The notes beneath the pieces were generated by a model. It ran no database searches, was not told the origin of the DNA, and saw only the letters and a list, made by a program, of their open reading frames with translations. The translations under genes were made by a program, and so were the position numbers. Below, in pieces: positions 1-15,444 of a stretch of DNA of 29,245 nt (the stretch's first letter is position 1; each line of letters begins with the position of its first letter). The DNA is from a virus. Lineage: Duplodnaviria; Heunggongvirae; Uroviricota; Caudoviricetes. The stretch is from positions 1 through 29,245 of IMG/VR virus record IMGVR_UViG_2778261122_000007; one strand, written 5' to 3'.

Positions 1-567
1 TATCGCGTCCTCAACAATGAATTTTGTGATGCGGTGCCTGGTGCCTCCAGGTGACGTTAACCAGTTAACAATTAACGCCGGATACAGAGAATCCACCCAT
101 GACACTGTTTTTGGTTTTAACTGTTCCGCGTGCGCTCAGCCGCATTCACCGCATCACAAAATTCACTTTAAAAAGGGCGGCAGAGCAGTCACGGAGTAAA
201 ACTGATACCGCCAAACGTCACCAGAAAATTGATAACAGAGGGCGTTGCAGCGGGGTTGTCACTTAAGCGTATGGTCAACCTGACAACCCGGTGTCCTCAA
301 CGGGGAAGGAATAACCCCGCCATACTTACCGTCGCGCCATTTCGCGGAGTGCCACAACCGGAAGCGCACGGTCGAAGAAAATTTAACGACAGACTATCTA
401 TGAACCAGCAACCTCGCCGTGCGCTTTCGCGTTATGCTCTGACTTTTCAGGGAAATATCCTTTCAGTAAACTGTCAGTGCCGGATGCTGACCCGTGTCCG
501 GCGCACGCACTCCACCTCACCCGTGGAGAACTCCTTAATTACCAACCTTAGCTTCGTTGGTTAGCTA

Positions 568-2691: not shown

Positions 2692-2762
2692 CTGACAATA
2701 GCCATATCGAATCGCTTCCGGCAACTCGTGAGTAAAAAGATTCGGTATCAGAAGAGGTGAGT

Positions 2763-3833
2763 ATGGCTAACGCCTGGCTCAGATTATGGCATGACATGCC
2801 AAATGACCCTAAGTGGCGAACAATTGCCAGGGTGTCAGGGCAGCCAATTGCAACAGTGATGGCAGTGTATATCCACCTCCTGGTGAGTGCGTCACGAAAT
2901 GTCACGCGAGGTCACATTGATGTCACGACAGAAGATTTGGCAAGTGCGCTCGACGTGACAGAAGAGGTAATTGATTCAATTTTGCAGACGATGCAGGGGC
3001 GGGTACTTGATGGTGATTTAATCACTGGATGGGAAAAACGCCAGGTGCTTAAAGAGGACAACGGCAATATTTCGCAAACCGCAAAATCTCCTGCAGAGCG
3101 CAAGAGGGCGCAGCGAGAGAGGGAAAGAAAGCGGGAACAAAATGGCGATTGTCACGGCGCGTCACGAAATGTCACGCACATGTCACGACGAGTCACGACA
3201 GATAAAGATACAGATAAAGATACAGATCAAGAAGATCAAAACACTATGGTCCATGGCGTAAAAAACGCCACGAACCAGGCAGGGGATGTTCAGACCGTCA
3301 ATCCTGGTCAGCCAGCAGGCACGACACCGGAAGCCGATTCAGCGTATGCGCTGAAAGCCGATTCGGGCGCTGTGCAGCAGGCGATGACCGCAGGGTCGGA
3401 GCAATCACACCAACTGCAGCAGCCTGAAGCCGATTCCGCCATTCAGCGGGAAGCCGATCGGGTAGTCCCGAAAAACACCGGGCAGCCTGTGGGACGAGTG
3501 GATTATCCGGATGTGTTCGAACAGATCTGGCGGGAGTACCCGTTGCGTGCCGGGGCAAACCCGAAGAAATCCGCTTTCAGTGCCTGGAAGGCCAGATTAC
3601 GCGAGGGGGTGCCACCAGAGGCCATGCTGGATGGCGTGAGGCGTTACGCAAGATACCTAGCGGTTACCGGGAAAACGGGAACGGAATTTGTTCAGCGGGC
3701 GACGACGTTTTTTGGACCGGACCGGAATTTTGAAAACCCCTGGTTGCTCCCGGTAAGCGGCACGAACAACCAGCGTTGTGTGAATCATATTTCTGAACCG
3801 GATACCGAAATTCCGCCGGGCTTCAGGGGGTAA
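2763..3833 (+). CDS. replication initiation protein (lambda O / YdaU-like), with internal iterons
   Basis: 356 aa from ATG 2763 (GAAGAGG Shine-Dalgarno; the track begins at GTG 2757); position after the cro/cII-like genes; contains two GTCACG iteron arrays and an adjacent tandem repeat, as lambda O contains its origin; basic/acidic low-complexity linker. Confidence 0.7.
   Translation: MANAWLRLWHDMPNDPKWRTIARVSGQPIATVMAVYIHLLVSASRNVTRGHIDVTTEDLASALDVTEEVIDSILQTMQGRVLDGDLITGWEKRQVLKEDNGNISQTAKSPAERKRAQRERERKREQNGDCHGASRNVTHMSRRVTTDKDTDKDTDQEDQNTMVHGVKNATNQAGDVQTVNPGQPAGTTPEADSAYALKADSGAVQQAMTAGSEQSHQLQQPEADSAIQREADRVVPKNTGQPVGRVDYPDVFEQIWREYPLRAGANPKKSAFSAWKARLREGVPPEAMLDGVRRYARYLAVTGKTGTEFVQRATTFFGPDRNFENPWLLPVSGTNNQRCVNHISEPDTEIPPGFRG
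2889..2959. repeat. iteron array 1: GTCAC(G/A) at 2891, 2901, 2911, 2922 (10-11 bp phasing) plus an inverted copy at 2954-2959
   Basis: Counted directly from the sequence; the 19-mer GCGTCACGAAATGTCACGC at 2889-2907 is repeated exactly at 3159-3177. Confidence 0.75.
3151..3197. repeat. iteron array 2: GTCACG at 3151, 3161, 3171, 3182, 3192 (10-11 bp phasing)
   Basis: Counted directly from the sequence; five helically phased copies; encodes the repeated RNVT/RRVT peptide motif in frame. Confidence 0.75.
3201..3228. repeat. tandem repeat GATAAAGATACA (about 2.3 copies), A/T-rich, immediately after iteron array 2
   Basis: Seen directly (gataaagataca gataaagataca gatc); encodes DKDTDKDTD; its position matches the A/T-rich unwinding element next to the iterons in lambda ori. 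Confidence 0.6.
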
Positions 3834-3873
3834 GTGTTTATTTCAGCTCATGAGGTAATTATCAGGAGGAGTT

Positions 3874-4299
3874 GTGGCAAAAGTTTTTACACAAGAAGAG
3901 CGGGAAAAAATTAAAGGGCAGGTTGTTGAACTTGTACGCCAGAGTGGGCGCGAGACGTTACGGCAACTGGAAGCCAAGACAGGTGCGACAAGATATTTGA
4001 TGAGTGTTCTCGCCAGAGAGCTGGTTGCCAGTGGCGATGTATACAATTCTGGCTACGGGTTATTCCCGTCTGAACAGGCTCGTAAAGACTGGCAAAACGC
4101 CCGCAAAAAATTATCGAGGGCAAAGCTGAAGAAACCGGTTGTGGTTGATCCGGACCTTATGTGGTCATTACCAGATGGAGAAATACGTCGCTACGACAGG
4201 CACCTGAATATAATCTGTCGCGAGTGCCGGGAGAGCGAAGTTATGCAGCGCATACTGGCATTTTATCAAGGAAATGTTAGGTATTTTAGACGTTACTAG
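3874..4299 (+). CDS. hypothetical protein (141 aa), possibly winged-helix-like
   Basis: ORF from the track with AGGAGG Shine-Dalgarno upstream (3862-3867); sits where a helicase loader (lambda P / DnaC-like) would be expected but is far too small and has no ATPase motifs. Confidence 0.55.
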   Translation: MAKVFTQEEREKIKGQVVELVRQSGRETLRQLEAKTGATRYLMSVLARELVASGDVYNSGYGLFPSEQARKDWQNARKKLSRAKLKKPVVVDPDLMWSLPDGEIRRYDRHLNIICRECRESEVMQRILAFYQGNVRYFRRY

Positions 4300-4527
4300 A
4301 TTAAAGAGCATTAGTTCAGATGTGAATTGACATTTTCATGGCGCAGGGTAGAGCTAGCGTGGTAGTTTTCTTTGTGCCAGAAACGGCATTTGCAAATATG
4401 GCCATGCGCTGTCACTTAGAGAGGAGCACAGGATTTACCTGTGCTCAAGTTCAATAGTAAAGATGAAAATATTATGAAGATGGTGGGGGAAATGTAACTG
4501 CAGTAATACTTTGTGCAAAAGTAGTAA

Positions 4528-5034
4528 TTATTTCTTTGCAGCCAGAATCAGGCCGTCAAGCCACTCCTGGTGACCATTGAGCATTGGGTTCGGACGAGTA
4601 TTTGCCAGGTCTTTTGCTGGAACTCCGTTCTGCGTTTCCTGTGTCAGGATACGGAGTCTGTTACCCGAGAGTTCCTCCAGTAGCCACGCATGATGAACAT
4701 CTAGGCGTTGTACAGTATCTTTTTCACCGGACCATCCGTGCCATGCCAAACGAGCAGGTTTACCTTCAGTAGGTGGAATAAATTCCACGACCTGAGCTTC
4801 AACCGGAAATCCAAATGTGCTGAAGTAAAAGCGCACGCCATTTTCCAGCTCCGGACCTTTATTGTTATAAAAGCGCACATCTGCTGAATTTTTATAGTAT
4901 TCCGGCCATAGTAATGGCTGACTAAGGAGTGGCCAAACATCATTGATGTTCAGACCGGAGATGATCATTTCATTAGACACAAAGTTATCAGTAAATCCCG
5001 GAACAAAGCCTTCTGGCCAGTGAATAGCGTTCAT
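4528..5034 (-). CDS. SRPBCC (Bet v1-like / polyketide cyclase-like) family protein
   Basis: 168 aa from ATG at 5034 (GGAGG Shine-Dalgarno on the reverse strand; the track ORF starts at TTG 5046); aromatic-rich composition typical of SRPBCC ligand-binding folds; family assigned by recognition, not by search. Confidence 0.7.
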   Translation of the reverse strand: MNAIHWPEGFVPGFTDNFVSNEMIISGLNINDVWPLLSQPLLWPEYYKNSADVRFYNNKGPELENGVRFYFSTFGFPVEAQVVEFIPPTEGKPARLAWHGWSGEKDTVQRLDVHHAWLLEELSGNRLRILTQETQNGVPAKDLANTRPNPMLNGHQEWLDGLILAAKK

Positions 5035-5169
5035 AAATGCCTCCAATTGCGGTAGTTAATTGTACTGGGTTTGCTGCGTTACGACCGCAACACGATGGCA
5101 GTGATTATTAGCGCAATGAAGTTATAAGGCGAATTATGATTACTTATAATCTTAATAAGATAAATTATA

Positions 5170-6078
5170 TCAGGAGCCAGTATCTTGGCTAACTTCTACG
5201 CATAAAGCCCGAATCCACTGATGGCTAGGGTCACGATGAGTTCGTTCATGCCAGGCCATACTCTTGGTAAAGCCCGGAACTTTCAGGGGCAAAGGGAGTA
5301 TGATTAGATCGTTGTTAGTCAGGACCATGCGGTGGGGGACAACAGCGATCATATCAGTCACTTGCAATATATCAGGAACTACTTGAAAACTATTAACTGA
5401 CATGCCTACTCGTCGTGTCAGACTGAGCTTAGCCAGTGCTTCATCTGTAACACCGGAGAAGCTACCTTCTGAAGACACCAGAATATGTTCCTGTTTGCAA
5501 AATTGTTCGAGAGTCATTTCTGAATTCGCTGACAACGGATGATTCCGTCGTGCTATGCAAACATAATCTTCTTCATAAAGTGCTCTGCCGTGCAGCTCTC
5601 CGGGAGTGGTTTGTGGTGTTACCAAAGCCAGATCAACTTCTCCCTGAGATAACTGCTGATATATTCGTTTATTGTCTACAGGCCGCACAGAGATTTTAAT
5701 ATTCGGTGCTCGATGTTTCAGCGCAGCCATCAATGGGACAACAACAGCCTTAACTGCATAGTCCGTTGCGACAATGGTATAAGTTAGTTCTGCCGTCATG
5801 GGGTCAAATTTACTTGGTTTCAGCAGAATCGCGATATCGGTGAGAATTTGTTTTACCGGCATAGCAAGCTCTTTGGCACGTAGTGTGGGAACCATACCGT
5901 GACTGGTGCGAACAAAGAGAGGATCGCAAAAATAATCACGTAATCGAATAAGCATGCCACTGACAGCGGGCTGCGTCAGGGAGAGTCGCTGCGCAGCCCG
6001 AGTCACGCTTCCCTCATCCATTAACGCATCAAAGGTCTTAAGTAAGTTAAGGTCGAGGGTTTTGATATCATTTTTCAT
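5170..6078 (-). CDS. LysR-family transcriptional regulator
   Basis: 302 aa; canonical LysR N-terminal HTH (LNLLKTFDALMDEGSVTRAAQRLSLTQPAVSGMLIRLRDYF) followed by a substrate-binding domain. Confidence 0.9.
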   Translation of the reverse strand: MKNDIKTLDLNLLKTFDALMDEGSVTRAAQRLSLTQPAVSGMLIRLRDYFCDPLFVRTSHGMVPTLRAKELAMPVKQILTDIAILLKPSKFDPMTAELTYTIVATDYAVKAVVVPLMAALKHRAPNIKISVRPVDNKRIYQQLSQGEVDLALVTPQTTPGELHGRALYEEDYVCIARRNHPLSANSEMTLEQFCKQEHILVSSEGSFSGVTDEALAKLSLTRRVGMSVNSFQVVPDILQVTDMIAVVPHRMVLTNNDLIILPLPLKVPGFTKSMAWHERTHRDPSHQWIRALCVEVSQDTGS

Positions 6079-6409
6079 AATGAGGTCACCTGACAGATAT
6101 AAAAATGTTGATTGAGGCTAATTGCCCCGATGAAGGTTGTCGAGGGGAACCAGGAGTTTTTTCTTTTGGGTGATTTCCATTGCTGGATAGTTCCCTTGTA
6201 CAGATAAGTCCGTTCTTCGCACAAAGCGGACTGGAAGGTTAGCTTGAGTCGGACTTTGCGTATTAGAAGAAGTGCTGGTGGTGACTGGTTCTTGAGCCCC
6301 ATTTCCCCAGAAAAAATCAGAGAAACTATACCCAATAGTTGTATTGATTCACTGACGAGACGGCCTCATATTGATAGGGACTAGTGTGCATCCAATACAG
6401 GAGGTTGTT

Positions 6410-6499
6410 GTGCTGGTTCTCAAATGTGCGCTGGCTATTGCGGCTGTAATGGCAATTTATTGTCTTTCTGTTGTTCTTATGGATCGCCTTTCTGATTGA
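6410..6499 (+). CDS. candidate small hydrophobic membrane peptide (29 aa; MLVLKCALAIAAVMAIYCLSVVLMDRLSD)
   Basis: Not in the ORF track (shorter than 60 aa). Strong CAGGAGG Shine-Dalgarno at 6398-6404, 5 nt before GTG 6410; single predicted transmembrane helix; lies upstream of hok. Confidence 0.35.
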   Translation: MLVLKCALAIAAVMAIYCLSVVLMDRLSD

Positions 6500-6653
6500 T
6501 TTCATATTGGCGAGGTAACGGTAGTTAAGTAGAATTGCTGCGGGTGCTTGAGGCTATCTGCCTCGGGCATGAACACCAACGGCAGATAGAGAAAAGCCCC
6601 AGTTAACATTACGCGTCCTGCAAGACGTTTAACATTAATCTGAGGCCATATCT

Positions 6654-6713
6654 ATGCGACACATAGAGATTAGCCTCTTACGGACCGAAAGGTCAAGGAG
6701 AAGCAGGCTATGA
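6654..6713 (+). CDS. mok-like leader ORF (19 codons) translationally coupled to hok
   Basis: ATG 6654 to TGA 6711-6713; the stop overlaps the hok start (ctATGa). Classic mok is longer, so this is an inference. Confidence 0.3.
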   Translation: MRHIEISLLRTERSRRSRL

Positions 6714-6865
6714 AGCAGCAAAAGGCGATGCTAATCGCCCTGATCGTCATCTGTTTAACCGTCATAGTGACGGCACTGGTAACGAGGAAAGACCTCTGCG
6801 AGGTACGAATCCGAACCGGCCAGACGGAGGTCGCTGTCTTCACAGCTTACGAACCTGAGGAGTAA
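6710..6865 (+). CDS. hok: Hok/Gef-family type I toxin (51 aa), HokD/RelF-like
   Basis: Not in the ORF track. Translation MKQQKAMLIALIVICLTVIVTALVTRKDLCEVRIRTGQTEVAVFTAYEPEE has the Hok signature (TM helix, TRK.LCE.R motif, conserved Cys); matches HokD as I recall it; structured leader upstream and terminator downstream. Confidence 0.85.
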   Translation: MKQQKAMLIALIVICLTVIVTALVTRKDLCEVRIRTGQTEVAVFTAYEPEE

Positions 6866-6933
6866 GAGACCAGGCGGGGGAGAAATCCCTCGCCACCTCT
6901 GATGTGTCAGGCATCCTCAACGCACCCGCACTT

Positions 6934-6960
6934 AACCCGCTTCGGCGGGTTTTGTTTTTT
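6934..6960 (+). terminator. rho-independent terminator downstream of hok
   Basis: AACCCGC-TTCG-GCGGGTT hairpin followed by TTTGTTTTTT. Confidence 0.7.
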
Positions 6961-7032
6961 CCTAGCATTCTGGTTTACAATTCGCACGCCAGCCTGAACA
7001 ACTGGCACCTGCTGCGCCAGCAGAGACAACCG

Positions 7033-7311
7033 ATGGCGCGCGATACCAAATTACACAATTCTAATGATTCTGCCGTCTTTGCCAGCAGGTGCGGACGGCG
7101 TTTTCACGCATTCAAATCAGACTGGTTCCAGCATCCTCCATGCACTGAAGAGCAGGCTGAATGGATAATTCAGTGTTACCGCAGGCGTGGATACGAGGTT
7201 AAGAAAGCTCTTAGTCTCGACTATCGTCACTGGATAATCTCAGTCAGACTCCCTTACTCCGAACGCCCACCGCGTCCGTCCCGCACATTCCAGCAACGGA
7301 TTTGGAGGTAA
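7033..7311 (+). CDS. hypothetical protein (92 aa), rem-like by position between hok and the DUF968 gene
   Basis: The track ORF 6904-7311 spans the hok terminator, so the first ATG after it (7033) is used; the hok-rem-ydfU-Q order is as I recall it for Qin. Start and identity are uncertain. Confidence 0.4.
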   Translation: MARDTKLHNSNDSAVFASRCGRRFHAFKSDWFQHPPCTEEQAEWIIQCYRRRGYEVKKALSLDYRHWIISVRLPYSERPPRPSRTFQQRIWR

Positions 7312-7312
7312 C

Positions 7313-8362
7313 GTGCGGGTATTACTTCGACCTGTTCTGGTACCGGAACTCGGGCTGGTGGTCCTTAAGCCAGGTCGTGAATCCATGCAGGTATTTCACA
7401 ATCCTCGAGTGCTGGTGGAGCCGGAACCGAAAAGCATGTGCGGCCTGCCATCCGGAGTCGTCCCTGCCGTTCGCCAGCCGCTGGCGGAGGATAAATCATT
7501 ACTGCCATTTTTCAGCGATGAGCGGGTGATTCGTGCTGCTGGCGGCGCTGGGGCACTGTCTGACTGGCTGTTGCGTCATGTCAAATCCTGCCAGTGGCCT
7601 CATGGTGACTATCATCACAGTGAAATCGTCATACATCGTTACGGTACCGGCGCGATGGTGTTGTGCTGGCACTGCGACAACCAGCTGCGTGACCAGACAT
7701 CCGAATCACTCGAGCAACTTGCTCATCAAAATCTGTCAGCATGGATGATTGACGTCATACGCCATGCAATGAATGGCACGCAGGAGAGGGAGTTATCGCT
7801 GGCTGAATTATCCTGGTGGGCGGTCTGCAATCAAGTGGCGGACGCGCTTCCGGAGGCAGTATTACGTCGTTCTCTGGGGTTACGTGCGGAAAAAATCCGC
7901 TCAATGTACCGTGAAAGCGACATCGTACCGGGAGAGCAGACCGCCACCAGCATACTGAAGCAGCGCACAAAAAATCTTGCGCCGTTGCTTCACACCCACC
8001 AGCCACAGAACCCAGCACAGGAAAAGCAGGTGGTCAGCATTGCCGTTGATCCGGAGTCTCCGGAATCTTTCATGAGGCGACCTAAACGTCGCCGTTGGGT
8101 AAATGAGAAATATACGCGCTGGGTGAAGACACAGCCGTGTGCGTGTTGTGGTCAACCAGCCGACGATCCCCATCACCTGATTGGTCACGGTCAGGGAGGG
8201 ATGGGAACAAAGGCCCACGATATTTTCACGCTACCGTTGTGCCGGGAACATCACAACGAACTTCATGCGGATCCGCTGGCGTTCGAAGAAAAGCATGGTT
8301 CTCAGGTTGATTTAATTTTTCGTTTTCTTGATCACGCCTTTGCAACCGGCGTGCTTGGGTAA
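7313..8362 (+). CDS. DUF968-family prophage protein (YdfU-like) with a C-terminal Cys/His cluster
   Basis: 349 aa; GTG 7313 preceded by GGAGG at 7304-7308; C-terminus CACCGQPADDPHHLIGHGQGGMGTKAHDIFTLPLCREHHNELH resembles an HNH/zinc-binding motif; position just upstream of rusA and Q. Confidence 0.7.
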   Translation: MRVLLRPVLVPELGLVVLKPGRESMQVFHNPRVLVEPEPKSMCGLPSGVVPAVRQPLAEDKSLLPFFSDERVIRAAGGAGALSDWLLRHVKSCQWPHGDYHHSEIVIHRYGTGAMVLCWHCDNQLRDQTSESLEQLAHQNLSAWMIDVIRHAMNGTQERELSLAELSWWAVCNQVADALPEAVLRRSLGLRAEKIRSMYRESDIVPGEQTATSILKQRTKNLAPLLHTHQPQNPAQEKQVVSIAVDPESPESFMRRPKRRRWVNEKYTRWVKTQPCACCGQPADDPHHLIGHGQGGMGTKAHDIFTLPLCREHHNELHADPLAFEEKHGSQVDLIFRFLDHAFATGVLG

Positions 8363-8734: not shown

Positions 8735-9420
8735 ATAACCAGTATTTACAGTTTGTGCGTGAGCAGCTCATTATCGCCACCGCTGATTTGAGTGGGGCAA
8801 CAAAAGGTCAGCTTGAAGTCTGGCAGGAGAATGCCATGTTCGATACAGGGCGTTACAGGCGAAAAAAAATCCGGTACCGCGATGAAGTGACTGGAAAAAT
8901 GATAACGCGGGATAATCCACCAATCCCGGGAAAGCAATCGCTGGCGAAGGGGACGTCAATTCCTCTGGTCAGTCCGGTTGAGTTTTCGACATCATCGTGG
9001 CGGCGGGCTGTTCTGTCTCTTGAAGAACATCATAAAGCCTGGTTGTTATGGTGTTACAGCGGGAGTATTTGTTGGGAATATCAGATCGCGATAACACAGT
9101 GGGCGTGGAATGAATTTAATACTCAATCCGGTACCAGAAAAATTGCAGGGAAAACGCAGGAACGCCTGAAAAAATTAATCTGGCTGGCGGCGCAGGCAGT
9201 AAAAGCAGAACTTTTAGATGGGGAAGGTTATGAATACCAGGAGCTGGCATTACTGGCGGGAGTGACAACTAAAAACTGGTCCAAAACATTTACTCGTCAC
9301 TGGGTTGCAATGAAACACATTTTTCAACGACTGGATAGTGAGGCTTTATTGTTTGTAATGAGAACGCGTTCAAAACAAAAGGCGGCATTTTCAAAGCAAA
9401 GTGTTGCAAAAGTAGATTGA
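8731..9420 (+). CDS. late-gene antiterminator Q-like protein
   Basis: 229 aa from ATG 8731 (overlaps the rusA stop in ATGA; the track starts at GTG 8725); last early gene before the tRNA/lysis region; Q family assigned by position and size, not by a recognised motif. Confidence 0.7.
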   Translation: MNNQYLQFVREQLIIATADLSGATKGQLEVWQENAMFDTGRYRRKKIRYRDEVTGKMITRDNPPIPGKQSLAKGTSIPLVSPVEFSTSSWRRAVLSLEEHHKAWLLWCYSGSICWEYQIAITQWAWNEFNTQSGTRKIAGKTQERLKKLIWLAAQAVKAELLDGEGYEYQELALLAGVTTKNWSKTFTRHWVAMKHIFQRLDSEALLFVMRTRSKQKAAFSKQSVAKVD

Positions 9421-9630: not shown

Positions 9631-9706
9631 GGCCCTTTAGCTCAGTGGTGAGAGCGAGCGACTCATAATCGCCAGGTCGCTGGTTCAAATCCAGCAAGGG
9701 CCACCA
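9631..9706 (+). tRNA. tRNA with CAU anticodon, Ile2 (lysidine) type, ileX/ileZ-like
   Basis: Manual cloverleaf: acceptor GGCCCTT/AAGGGCC, anticodon arm GCGACTCATAATCGC, T-loop TTCAAAT, encoded CCA; very close to my recollection of E. coli ileX. Confidence 0.8.
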
Positions 9707-9707
9707 A

Positions 9708-9784
9708 CCGCCACTAGCTCATCAGGAAAGAGCGTCAACCCTTTAAGTTGAGTGTGCGAGGTTCGAGTCCCCGGTGGCGGTCCA
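9708..9784 (+). tRNA. tRNA-like gene, anticodon loop CCUUUAA (apparent anticodon UUU, Lys); non-canonical C33 and an A-C mismatch in the T-stem
   Basis: Manual fold: acceptor CCGCCAC/GTGGCGG, D-arm GCTC/GAGC, anticodon stem TCAAC/GTTGA, T-loop TTCGAGT, encoded CCA. Identity is uncertain; it could be a degenerate or specialised tRNA. Confidence 0.5.
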
Positions 9785-9786
9785 GT

Positions 9787-9862
<76 letters not shown>

Positions 9863-9865
9863 TAT

Positions 9866-9940
<75 letters not shown>

Positions 9941-11140: not shown

Positions 11141-11601
11141 GCAGAGTAACCGCGATTATCTCCGCTCTGGTTATCTGCATCATCGTCAGCCTGTCATGGG
11201 CAGTCAATTATTACCGTGATAACGCCATCTCCTACAAAGACCAGCGCGATAAAGCGAAGGAAAAACTCAGCCAGGCGAACGCCACCATCACTGACATGCA
11301 GCAGCGCCAGCGTGATGTTGCTGCACTGGATGAAAAATACTCAAGGGAGTTAGCTGATGCAAAAGCTGAAAATGATGCTCTGCGTGATGATATTGCCACT
11401 GGTCGTCGTCGGTTGCGCATCAGAGCAGTCTGTCAGACCGTGCGTGAAGCCACCGCCGCCTCCGACATGGGTAATGCAGCCGCCCCCCGACTGGCAGACA
11501 CCGCTGAACGGGATTATTTCACCCTCAGAGAGCGGCTGATAATAATGCAAAAACAACTGGAAGGGGCACAGCTATACATTCGTGAGCAATGTCTCAGATA
11601 A
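11137..11601 (+). CDS. Rz: Rz i-spanin
   Basis: ATG 11137 overlaps the endolysin stop (ATGA); N-terminal TM segment followed by a coiled-coil periplasmic domain; Rz1 is embedded in the +1 frame. Confidence 0.85.
11357..11539 (+). CDS. Rz1: Rz1 o-spanin lipoprotein, embedded within Rz
   Basis: 60 aa; lipobox LVVVGC; proline-rich ([18 protein letters not shown]); entirely inside Rz in another frame. Confidence 0.85.
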
Positions 11602-13687: not shown

Positions 13688-15444
13688 TGGCAAAAGTGGC
13701 TGACGGGATCCGCTACGCCGAACGTGTTGTTGCAGGAGAAATTGTCGCTGGCGAATTTGTCCGTCTGGCCTGCCAGCGTTTTCTTGATGATCTGAAGTAC
13801 GGCGAAGAGCGGGGGATTTATTTCAGTGAATCCCGTGCGCAGCACATCCTGAATTTCTACAAATTTGTGCCCCATGTGAAAGGGGCGCTGGCAGGCCAGC
13901 CCATTGAGTTGATGGACTGGCATGTATTTATCCTCATTAATATTTTTGGTTTTGTCATTCCGCTGGTGAATGAAGAGACCGGGGAAGTTGTCATGCGCAG
14001 CGATGGCAGCGGACGCCCGGTGATGGTGCGCCGGTTCCGGACGGCGTACAACGAAGTCGCCCGTAAAAACGCAAAATCAACCCTGTCATCGGGTATCGGC
14101 CTGTATATGACGGGGGCAGATGGTGAAGGCGGTGCTGAGGTGTATTCAGCCGCAACCACGCGTGACCAGGCCAGAATCGTGTTTGAAGACGCCAAAAATA
14201 TGGTCAGAAAAGCCCGGTCGACACTCGGGCGGTTGTTTGATTTCAACAAGCTGGCGATTTACCAGGAGCAGAGCGCATCAAAATTTGAACCGCTTTCTTC
14301 GGATGCAAACAACCTGGATGGTCTGAACATCCACTGCGCCATTATTGATGAGCTGCATGCACATAAAACCCGCGACGTGTGGGACGTTCTGGAAACGGCA
14401 ACTGGTGCCCGTCTGCAGTCCCTTTTATTTGGTATCACCACGGCTGGCTTTAACAAGGAAGGGATTTGTTACGAGCAACGCGATTACGCCATCAAGGTAT
14501 TGCGAGGCTATAACAGCGACGTGGAGGGCGCGGTAAAAGACGACTCCTACTTTGCGATTATTTACACCCTCGATGAGGGAGATGATCCGTTTGATGAAAC
14601 GGTCTGGCAGAAAGCGAATCCCGGCCTGGGCATCTGTAAACGCTGGGATGATCTGCGTCGTCTGGCGAAAAAGGCGAAGGAGCAGGTCTCGGCGCGGGTG
14701 AATTTTTTCACAAAACACATGAATGTGTGGGTCACTGCCGAGTCTGCCTGGATGGACATGATTAAGTGGGAGAAATGCGAATATATTGCCCCACGACATG
14801 AGCTGAAAACGTATCCCATGTGGGTCGGCGTTGACCTTGCTCATAAGATTGATATCTGTGCGGCGGCAAAACTCTGGCGAACGGATAACGGGCATGTTCA
14901 TGCCGATTTTAAATTCTGGCTCCCGGAAGGACGGCTGGAACGATGCTCGCGGCAGCAGGCAGAACTTTACCGGAAGTGGGCGGAGATGGATAAGCTGATT
15001 CTGACGGATGGTGATGTTATCGATCATGCTCAGATAAAAAGTGACTTACTGGAATGGATTGGCGGTGAAAACCTGAGGGAACTGGGATTTGACCCGTGGA
15101 GCGCGATGCAGTTCAGCCTGGCACTGGCTGAAGAAGGGATACCGCTGGTGGAGGTTCCGCAGACGGTTCGCAATCTGTCAGAGGCCATGAAGGAAACGGA
15201 ATCACTGGTCTATGCCGGGCGTTTCCATCACAGCAATCATCCGGTCATGAACTGGATGATGTCTAACGTTACGGTAAAACCGGACAAAAACGACAATATC
15301 TTCCCGAATAAATCCACGCCGGAAGCCAAAATCGACGGCCCTGTTGCGATGTTTACAGCAATGAGCCGGATGCTGGTCAATAGTGGTGAACCGGAGCCGG
15401 ATCTGTCTGAACATCTGGTCAGCGTGGGCATCCGCTCACTTTAA
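13687..15444 (+). CDS. terminase large subunit
   Basis: 585 aa; ATPase region followed by a nuclease region (IIDELH Walker B-like); position and size. Confidence 0.9.

Follow-up and report, generated by a model that had tools for sequence, protein, structure and literature searches.

Here we report an analysis of IMG/VR virus record IMGVR_UViG_2778261122_000007 (Caudoviricetes), whose 29,245 nucleotides (hereafter the window) represent an Escherichia coli lambdoid prophage of the Qin/Rac-like kind, and in particular of a 1.87-kb block that carries the genes of a LysR-type regulator and an SRPBCC protein. We conclude, with a probability of roughly 0.75, that positions 4365-6231 are a horizontally acquired cassette in the standard accessory slot of this prophage family, that the LysR–SRPBCC pair is regulated non-phage cargo, that the slot ends in two inverted 24-bp sites, and that no helicase loader was replaced. 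A preliminary description made from the letters of the sequence had treated positions 3874-6078 as one cargo block. This block consists of two unrelated things, a Ren-like/DUF977 gene and the cassette; the finding as originally stated amounts to an ordinary moron at a site already known to vary in a loaderless lambdoid family, and what is not ordinary are the boundary sites.

The window is 99.7% identical to E. coli strain ChlosBP-23-1 across positions 2700-7400. Its genes are arranged in the order DicF, cI-like repressor, cro-like gene, YdaT-like gene, replication initiator, DUF977 gene, variable slot, sok/hokD, DUF968, RusA, Q, tRNAs, and lysis and structural genes. The initiator and the three open reading frames (ORFs) singled out in the preliminary description are all present at the coordinates used below.

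The cassette lies between the DUF977 gene and hokD. Homology to relatives with other cargo stops at 4379-4386 and resumes at 6207-6208, and a composition comparison proposed in the preliminary description gave a G + C content of 44.9% at 4365-6231 versus 51.4% and 50.6% in the flanking backbone. The LysR–SRPBCC unit was found in 5 of 5,426 complete E. coli genomes, the flanks of the slot in 2,482, and a comparison of the cargo DNA with 50,697 phage records yielded no match. Over its whole length, the cassette is 85% identical to megaplasmids of Pantoea vagans and P. agglomerans and to a plasmid of Klebsiella michiganensis, and a set of five non-phage loci matches positions 4370-6231 of the window at 85%. 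The endpoints of the latter match are set by the junctions of the window itself, and the discreteness of the cassette rests on the comparison of the donors with each other: five non-phage loci (P. vagans pVag1, the K. michiganensis plasmid, Yokenella, Atlantibacter and 'Ca. Pantoea alvi') share only the 1.87-kb unit, at 91–99% identity and with the same ends, and the cassette is therefore a discrete unit.

In relatives, the slot is taken up by other cargo, and its length has at least 11 different values in 42 viral contigs; phage mEp460 carries PD-T7-1 (E = 4e-157) and phage Tritos a PDC-S15 candidate (E = 1e-98). The cassette is absent at this site in close relatives, has its own predicted promoter and a deviating composition, and separates genes that otherwise adjoin each other, as expected of a moron or hotspot insertion. 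It resembles the cargo of the lambda ren–nin region and of the P2 and P4 defence hotspots, which is variable, independently transcribed, of deviating composition, in anti-lytic orientation, absent from close relatives and often concerned with defence, but the slot of the window differs by its specific 24-bp site pair and by the presence of the same unit on non-phage plasmids and chromosomes of other genera. The sole near-empty slot among the 5,426 genomes, that of E. coli A20 (L100, 1603-1876), consists of a left boundary site, 226 nt of non-coding DNA without an ORF and a partly decayed right boundary site; it is also the smallest one, and no entirely empty slot turned up.

The slot is bracketed by inverted 24-bp sites of 9-6-9 layout, with arms GTCCGCTTT and AAAGCGGAC around the spacer GTGCCA on the left (L-site) and GAGCGA on the right (R-site). 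Each cassette copy carries an L-site of the form GTCCGCTTT-GTGCCA-(A/G)(A/G)AGCGGAC and, in inverted orientation, an R-site of the form GTCCGCT(T/A)T-GAGCGA-NNAGCGGAC. In the window, alignment of backbones and donor loci places the L-site, GTTTTCTTTGTGCCAGAAACGGCA, at 4365-4388 on the plus strand, in a degenerate form with 18/24 matches to GTCCGCTTTGTGCCAGAAGCGGAC; the R-site, located by motif scan and junction listing at 6208-6231 on the minus strand, reads GTCCGCTTTGTGCGAAGAACGGAC on that strand and has the spacer GTGCGA, an L/R hybrid. Homology to the donors begins at 4370 and ends at 6231. The L/R pair brackets the DUF977–hokD slot in all phage relatives, regardless of cargo, and was recovered in phages by an independent repeat finder as an inverted repeat of 36–40 nt.

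Among hand-collected sites, the spacer was GTGCCA in 17/17 correctly registered L-sites and GAGCGA in 11/13 R-sites. A larger set of 78 distinct sites was chosen on the spacers, so that spacer conservation cannot be read from it; changes in its stem positions are one-sided, with counts of 51 CG, 9 TG, 8 CA and 1 TA at pair 4-21. The lack of compensatory stem changes argues for a site that is recognised by protein in duplex form, with inverted arms of 9 bp each and an asymmetric 6-bp spacer, and a folded-hairpin substrate is disfavoured. The layout of inverted arms and type-specific spacers fits that of a tyrosine-recombinase core site, with no recombinase linked to the sites in phages. Several other classes of element were considered. 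A REP-like repeat was rejected by copy number: a census of E. coli found the site in 45% of genomes, with a median of one per genome and a maximum of six, always intergenic and 158 times on plasmids, and absent from 55% of genomes. An intrinsic terminator was rejected by the missing T-run after the motif. The cassettes have inverted 24-bp ends, but no target-site duplication surrounds any of the 12 elements inspected, unlike in a transposable cassette bounded by terminal inverted repeats, such as a miniature inverted-repeat transposable element or a mobile insertion cassette. A Xer/dif-type (pdif-like) module does not fit either; the arms GTCCGCTTT and AAAGCGGAC are unlike the dif arms in sequence, although the architecture is similar.

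An exact-pattern scan of IMG/VR yielded 80 loci with the site, 56 of which have an R-site within 0.4–5.8 kb, against a chance expectation of about 3e-4 per locus. DUF977 is present in 42 of the loci (at least 11 slot lengths), and 36 have unrelated flanks, including a slot between umuC and an SRAP/YedK-like gene, P2-like regions and others, among them tandem units joined as R-18 bp-L. The cargo of L/R units comprises PD-T7-1, PDC-S15, DarTG, a type III-A retron with PRTase and a caspase-like protein, and also MFS, ASCH and glyoxalase proteins. The slot from the umuC-like to the SRAP/YedK-like gene is a second hotspot bracketed by the L/R pair (L102, L118, L138, L147, L152 and L155), whose cargo differs per contig (caspase-like, AbiC-like, MFS, ASCH and a multi-cassette array).

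In P. vagans, a 50-kb stretch of pVag1 (438000-487900) holds at least 11 sites (positions 8964, 11629, 15614, 20933, 24024, 24062, 25908, 28288, 33415, 33454 and 35941 of locus L101). The L/R-bounded units measure 1.9–5 kb and abut as R-14/15 bp-L, and many of them are small pairs of a regulator and an enzyme. A tyrosine recombinase of 200 aa is encoded in two of the units, at 13788-14390 and at 32096-32698, in both cases beside a ycgZ–ymgB cluster, and the same recombinase recurs beside the cassette in a third Pantoea locus (L021), so that it lies in or beside cassettes in three loci of this genus.

The turnover of accessory and defence genes in phage hotspots is usually ascribed to homologous recombination between the conserved flanks. 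Applied to the present case, this accepted explanation would make the 24-bp motifs insulators, terminators or operators, situated at module borders by chance, rather than dedicated recombination sites. It is in line with the inverted repeat in phages, which at 36–40 nt extends beyond the 24-bp core, and with the lack of both a recombinase gene linked to the phage slots and a target-site duplication. We nevertheless consider it unlikely, although it is the most serious of the competing explanations: homology between unrelated replicons ends exactly at the outer edge of the motif in five non-phage contexts and in the phage, the same L/R pair occurs at unrelated loci (umuC–SRAP, P2-like regions and the Pantoea plasmid array with its R-14/18 bp-L junctions), the two ends carry different and nearly invariant spacers, and the motif is of low copy number and lacks a T-run. 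Judged by these sequence comparisons, the boundary sites are most likely recombination sites for swaps of whole cassettes between phages and plasmids.

How such swaps might proceed can be proposed more tentatively. The L (GTGCCA) and R (GAGCGA) sites may be the heterospecific sites of an undescribed cassette-exchange system of Enterobacterales, akin to a natural recombinase-mediated cassette exchange, a proposal to which we give somewhat less than even odds. With differing spacers facing each other, a cassette could not be lost or inverted via its own ends and would be swappable as a whole between any two replicons with an L...R slot; the sites would thus let cassettes move between phages and plasmids. 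If true, this would explain the identical bounded units in phages, plasmids and chromosomes, the same boundaries at unrelated phage hotspots (DUF977–hokD, umuC–SRAP and P2-like), the turnover of defence systems there, and the arrays on a Pantoea megaplasmid with their small tyrosine recombinase. It would also give a testable route for the movement of defence systems and other cargo between unrelated mobile elements, and the site pair would serve as a simple sequence mark by which cassettes of this kind could be recognised. A literature search on the boundary motif found no description, an absence that does not prove novelty.

Two known systems are similar in part. The pdif modules of Acinetobacter plasmids are discrete pieces of cargo that lie between XerC/XerD sites of opposite orientation. 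They share with the present cassettes the size of one to a few genes, short inverted sites, the occurrence in many contexts and in arrays, and the lack of an own recombinase; here, however, the site is unrelated to dif, each cassette keeps its own two sites (R-14/18 bp-L), and the hosts are Enterobacterales and phages. Integron cassettes are likewise small, mobile and arranged in arrays, and their recombination sites are imperfect palindromes, whereas the cassettes described here have neither an attC core (GTTRRRY) nor IntI, carry two sites each as well as their own promoters and regulators, and give no support for a folded-strand substrate.

The preliminary description had placed the cargo block at the position of a helicase loader, which disagrees with the gene order of relatives that possess one. 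The order in lambda is O–P–ren, that in Rac is ydaU, ydaV (DnaC-like), ydaW, and that in Shigella phage POCJ13, whose initiator C-domain is 63% identical to that of the window initiator, is initiator, DnaC-like loader, DUF1627, Ren-like gene. Because loader-bearing relatives place the DnaC-like gene between initiator and DUF977, the loader slot is there, upstream of the 141-aa gene and not in the cassette; in the window, this gap measures 40 bp. A six-frame tblastn search of the 29-kb window with lambda P, Rac YdaV, the DnaC-like proteins of Gifsy-2 and POCJ13, and DUF1627 gave only matches of E > 0.5 and no homolog. The loader is missing in every relative examined, independent of the cargo in the slot and including strain A20 with its near-empty slot. 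On this comparison of gene orders, the cassette displaced no loader, and the absence of a loader is a family-wide trait.

The Rac protein YdaW (K-12; L014, 3753-4313) matches DUF1627 (E = 4e-34) and has an HTH-like N-terminus, and was rejected as a DUF977 protein. Its annotated C-terminus matches positions 11192-11266 of the window, in the lysis region, consistent with the known Rac deletion fusion.

Nor does the missing loader indicate a defect, as the preliminary description had considered. Phages Evi, Tritos, vB_EcoS-640R1 and others have initiators about 97% identical to that of the window (Tritos 97.5%), and Tritos shows the same initiator–DUF977 arrangement without a loader. Tritos is induced spontaneously, with a yield of 2.8e6 genomes/mL; it makes virions, plaques on MG1655 hsdR-, and has been both propagated and imaged (PMC9928086). 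The family is viable without a loader, whose absence is normal in it. The idea that the cargo took the place of a P- or DnaC-type loader and left the prophage unable to replicate could draw on the DnaC-like loader directly after the initiator of POCJ13 and on the frameshifted integrase of the nearest genome, which may mean that the prophage is decaying. It is hardly credible in view of the position of the loader upstream of DUF977 where one exists, of the lack of a loader in all slot variants, and of the propagation of Tritos.

Initiator-only modules are a recognised class (phage LLS class) that comprises 34/314 lambdoid phages, and the mechanism of helicase loading in them is stated as not understood (PMC12315714). 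The window falls within the definition of this class, with an origin-binding initiator and no helicase or loader gene in the module, but its initiator is of the replisome-organizer type and not a homolog of lambda O. The text of PMC12315714 on initiator-only modules makes no mention of 'DnaT'.

The 141-aa product (3874-4299, plus strand), which had been described as hypothetical and devoid of ATPase motifs, indeed lacks a Walker A motif but is more than a hypothetical protein. It matches Pfam PF06163 (DUF977) with E = 9e-28 and 97.4 bits (cut-off 22.1) over residues 1-135 of 141, as its only Pfam match, and PHROG 142 'Ren-like exclusion protein' with E = 5e-46; NCBIfam returned no match. The product is 67% identical to POCJ13 gp19, a 'Ren-like exclusion protein', and its C-terminus resembles the C-terminal motif of lambda Ren (BLASTP E = 2e-6). 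The absence of a Walker A motif, the exclusive Pfam match to DUF977 and the Ren-like PHROG rule out a DnaC/IstB AAA+ or lambda P loader. The gene is a conserved backbone gene that lies outside the cargo, at the end of the early-right replication module, where lambda has ren. The preliminary description had itself named two findings that would speak against it, membership of the 141-aa product in a known loader family and a LysR–SRPBCC pair that is core in all relatives; the product belongs to no known loader family, and the pair is not core in the relatives. A literature search on DUF977 returned nothing relevant.

A role of the DUF977/Ren-like protein as a non-canonical adaptor that takes over helicase loading from P or DnaC is very improbable. 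It would account for the constant position of the gene directly after the initiator in this family and for its co-inheritance with the 3' end, which encodes the tail, in two initiator types that are unrelated to each other (last 20 aa 100% identical, the rest unalignable). The protein has no ATPase motif, however; POCJ13 has DUF977 in addition to a DnaC-like loader, the loaderless phage SPN1S and Klebsiella phages have DUF1064 in place of DUF977, and lambda Ren is dispensable for the replication of lambda.

The initiator is the sole replication gene of the module (start at 2757 or 2763, end at 3833, plus strand; 'phage replisome organizer'). It matches PHROG 3729 'replication initiation protein' (E = 4e-254), and its C-terminal half resembles PHROG 1701 'DnaD-like helicase loader' (E = 5e-62). 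An alignment divides it into an N-domain (about aa 1–100), a low-complexity linker, a conserved C-domain (about aa 247–330) and a DnaT-like tail. The family is mosaic by domain: the same N-domain (85% identity) is fused to PF17948, a DnaT-like ssDNA-binding domain, in other E. coli prophages, and the C-domain of the window initiator was found fused to at least two other N-domains. A connection to DnaT is thus already visible in the annotation of these sister initiators.

The tail VNHISEPDTEIPPGFRG, encoded at 3780-3830 (plus strand), matches the NCBIfam model of DnaT over the last 24 aa (E = 0.0015) and was aligned by phmmer to DnaT chains of the PDB entries 6aep, 2ru8 and 9zbt; 13/17 residues are identical to those of the C-terminus of E. 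coli DnaT, VNTVSEPDSQIPPGFRG. Its consensus, R-x-VN-x-[IV]-[SP]-x-PD-x-x-IP-[PT]-GFRG (17–20 aa), closes at least five unrelated families of phage initiators (window; L007, 3004-3063; L014, 2921-2977; L016–L019). The otherwise unalignable initiators that bear it include Rac YdaU, the O proteins of Gifsy-1 and Gifsy-2, and the initiators of SPN1S type, of a Klebsiella phage and of POCJ13, and the last 20 aa of the O-type proteins of prophage RM9088 and phage mEp460 are 100% and 95% identical to the tail of the window; lambda O was examined and lacks it. Tail-bearing initiators occur both with an own DnaC paralog (Rac, Gifsy-2, POCJ13) and without one (window family, mEp460, SPN1S). A literature search on the string PPGFRG returned nothing relevant.

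The likeness to DnaT comprises the nearly identical last 17 residues and PF17948 on the sister initiators. The initiator is not a member of the DnaT family as a whole: Pfam finds no domain in it, only the last 17–24 residues align, and a PDB search with a profile built from homologs of the initiator returned nothing but the tail of DnaT, with neither the N-terminal domain nor the three-helix ssDNA-binding domain of DnaT detectable. The AF2 model of the initiator has a mean pLDDT of 50, and a Foldseek search with this low-confidence model gave nothing below E = 1.3. No structure has been solved for residues 154–179 of DnaT, whose deletion raises the Kd for ssDNA no more than about twofold, and the way in which DnaT brings in DnaB–DnaC is stated as unknown (PMC4132743, PMC13377028). 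We infer from its distribution that the tail may be a portable docking peptide for DnaB or DnaC-type loaders. The initiator of the window probably recruits the host DnaB–DnaC complex itself, with the DnaT-like tail as the likely docking element, and a dependence of the window family on host DnaC–DnaB is plausible. The tail links two published open questions, helicase loading by initiator-only modules and recruitment of DnaB–DnaC by DnaT, which become approachable via one short peptide.

The cargo genes themselves carry the labels given in the preliminary description. The LysR-type regulator (302 aa; 5170-6078, minus strand) has the Pfam domains HTH_1 (E = 1e-17, 64 bits) and LysR_substrate (E = 9e-37, 126.9 bits), both above their cut-offs. 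It is of a LeuO/BsrA-like subfamily, but falls short of the NCBIfam equivalog cut-offs, scoring 206 bits for BsrA (cut-off 480) and 172 bits for LeuO (cut-off 262). The product of the second gene (168 aa; 4528-5034, minus strand, with an alternative TTG start at 5046) is a ligand-binding protein of the SRPBCC (Bet v1/START-like helix-grip) type and of the jhp0584 family. Like the initiator, it has no Pfam match, and NCBIfam gave none either; phmmer linked it to Helicobacter pylori jhp0584 (PDB 4r7k, E = 4e-51), to which it is 52% identical across the Foldseek structural alignment. Its AF2 model (pLDDT 93.7) consists of beta-strands followed by a C-terminal helix (150–167), and Foldseek returned 4r7k (TM 0.93) and then cytokinin-binding protein, PYL receptors, Bet v 1 and CoxG-like proteins, all at a probability of 1.0; the predicted structure thus confirms membership in the SRPBCC superfamily.

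The SRPBCC protein has 1,552 homologs. Of 80 species-level loci that encode an SRPBCC ortholog, 59 have a LysR ortholog (45–88% identity) within 600 bp of the SRPBCC gene (34 divergent, 18 tandem, 7 downstream). The layout is tandem, as in the window, in all of the 16 closest enterobacterial loci. The control region between the two genes (5035-5172, minus strand) contains a predicted extended -10 element with TG, TGATATAAT, at 5172-5164 (10/12 matches), a T-N11-A dyad, CTTATTAAGATTATAAG, at 5159-5143, and a second TTATAA half-site; the extended -10 and the dyads (CTTAT-N7-ATAAG) are invariant or nearly so in 14 genera. By these patterns of linkage and conservation, LysR and SRPBCC are a conserved regulator–target pair. 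Together with the rarity of the unit in E. coli and its absence from phage records, the linkage bears out the earlier view of a regulated accessory unit without phage function.

The pair shares with LeuO and BsrA and their adjacent targets the HTH_1 and LysR substrate domains, the T-N11-A dyads and the close linkage to the target gene, but scores below both equivalog cut-offs and has its target in tandem and not divergent. The SRPBCC gene lies 135 bp 3' of the LysR gene, in a leftward unit that is oriented against lytic transcription and has its own predicted promoters. In a lysogen, LysR would bind the AT-rich T-N11-A dyads at the SRPBCC promoter and tune expression to a small ligand, and the SRPBCC protein may bind or convert a hydrophobic or electrophilic compound, a moron function of benefit to the host and not to the phage. 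Further recurrent neighbours (OYE flavin oxidoreductases, Zn-ADH-type reductases, DJ-1/PfpI, glyoxalase and 3-hydroxyacid dehydrogenases) point loosely to the handling of electrophiles or quinones.

The cargo found in the same slot elsewhere, PD-T7-1 in mEp460 and the PDC-S15 candidate in Tritos, and the DarTG, type III-A retron and caspase-like proteins of cassettes with the same sites at other loci might suggest that the LysR–SRPBCC pair is an undescribed anti-phage defence system. We regard this as improbable. None of LysR, SRPBCC, DUF977 and initiator matched a PADLOC model, the pair is widespread over Proteobacteria as a chromosomal or plasmid unit beside OYE, Zn-ADH, DJ-1/PfpI and glyoxalase genes, and cassettes of the same kind also carry the non-defence MFS, ASCH and glyoxalase proteins.

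Several observations weigh against parts of our interpretation of the cassette as host-beneficial, mobile cargo beside a module that recruits the host helicase. Two of the five E. coli copies of the cassette are hit by IS66 or IS3 elements and LysR is frameshifted in one, which argues against strong selection in E. coli, and with its degenerate L-site (18/24), the copy in the window may have lost its mobility. The DNA around the LysR dyads is rich in A + T, so that patterns of this kind come easily, and activation and repression are indistinguishable because the stop codon of LysR falls within the predicted -10 element. A literature search on the jhp0584 family returned nothing relevant. The match of the tail to DnaT is short and statistically weak by itself (E = 0.0015–0.07), the three-helix domain of DnaT is missing from what can be detected in the initiator, and the tail, which also occurs on initiators with an own DnaC-like loader, cannot alone explain loaderlessness.

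In the disrupted copies, IS66-family elements are inserted in the 3' end of the DUF977 gene (L003, 4596-6981) and between SRPBCC and LysR (L007, 4304-6919), and an IS3 element lies 5' of LysR in L007 (8303-9516), the locus with the frameshifted LysR gene. The flanking alignments overlap by 8–9 bp for the IS66 insertions and by 3 bp for IS3.

The upstream and promoter region of LysR (6079-6207, minus strand) lies within the cassette and is common to the chromosomal ykgR locus. The R-end of the cassette, comprising the R-like site, a promoter/5' region of about 130 bp and the start codon (window 6063-6236; L010, 3001-3180), is 88–92% identical to the ykgR locus in about 430 E. coli genomes, where ykgR occupies the position of the LysR gene start. 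By this similarity, the ykgR locus probably retains a remnant of a related cassette end.

On the right side, the slot is followed by a conserved neighbour, the locus of the sok antisense RNA and the hokD toxin (6542-6865, plus strand; Rfam sok 101 bits, Pfam HOK_GEF E = 1e-23). The window further contains the gene of the DicF sRNA (175-226, minus strand) and a cluster of four tRNAs 3' of Q (9631-9937, plus strand). The cro-like ORF (108 aa) matches in length the cro-like ORF annotated in phage Tritos; in the nearly identical genome (L001, 1-14 and 5340-5583), PGAP called both the cro-like gene and the prophage integrase frameshifted. A second variable position lies between hokD and a 92-aa gene that precedes DUF968. 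It is empty in the window and is occupied in some relatives by an HTH + ImmA/IrrE pair (L005, 6763-7601) and in Tritos by an RmrT/RmrA-like pair (RmrA E = 6e-102; L011, 9236-10992).

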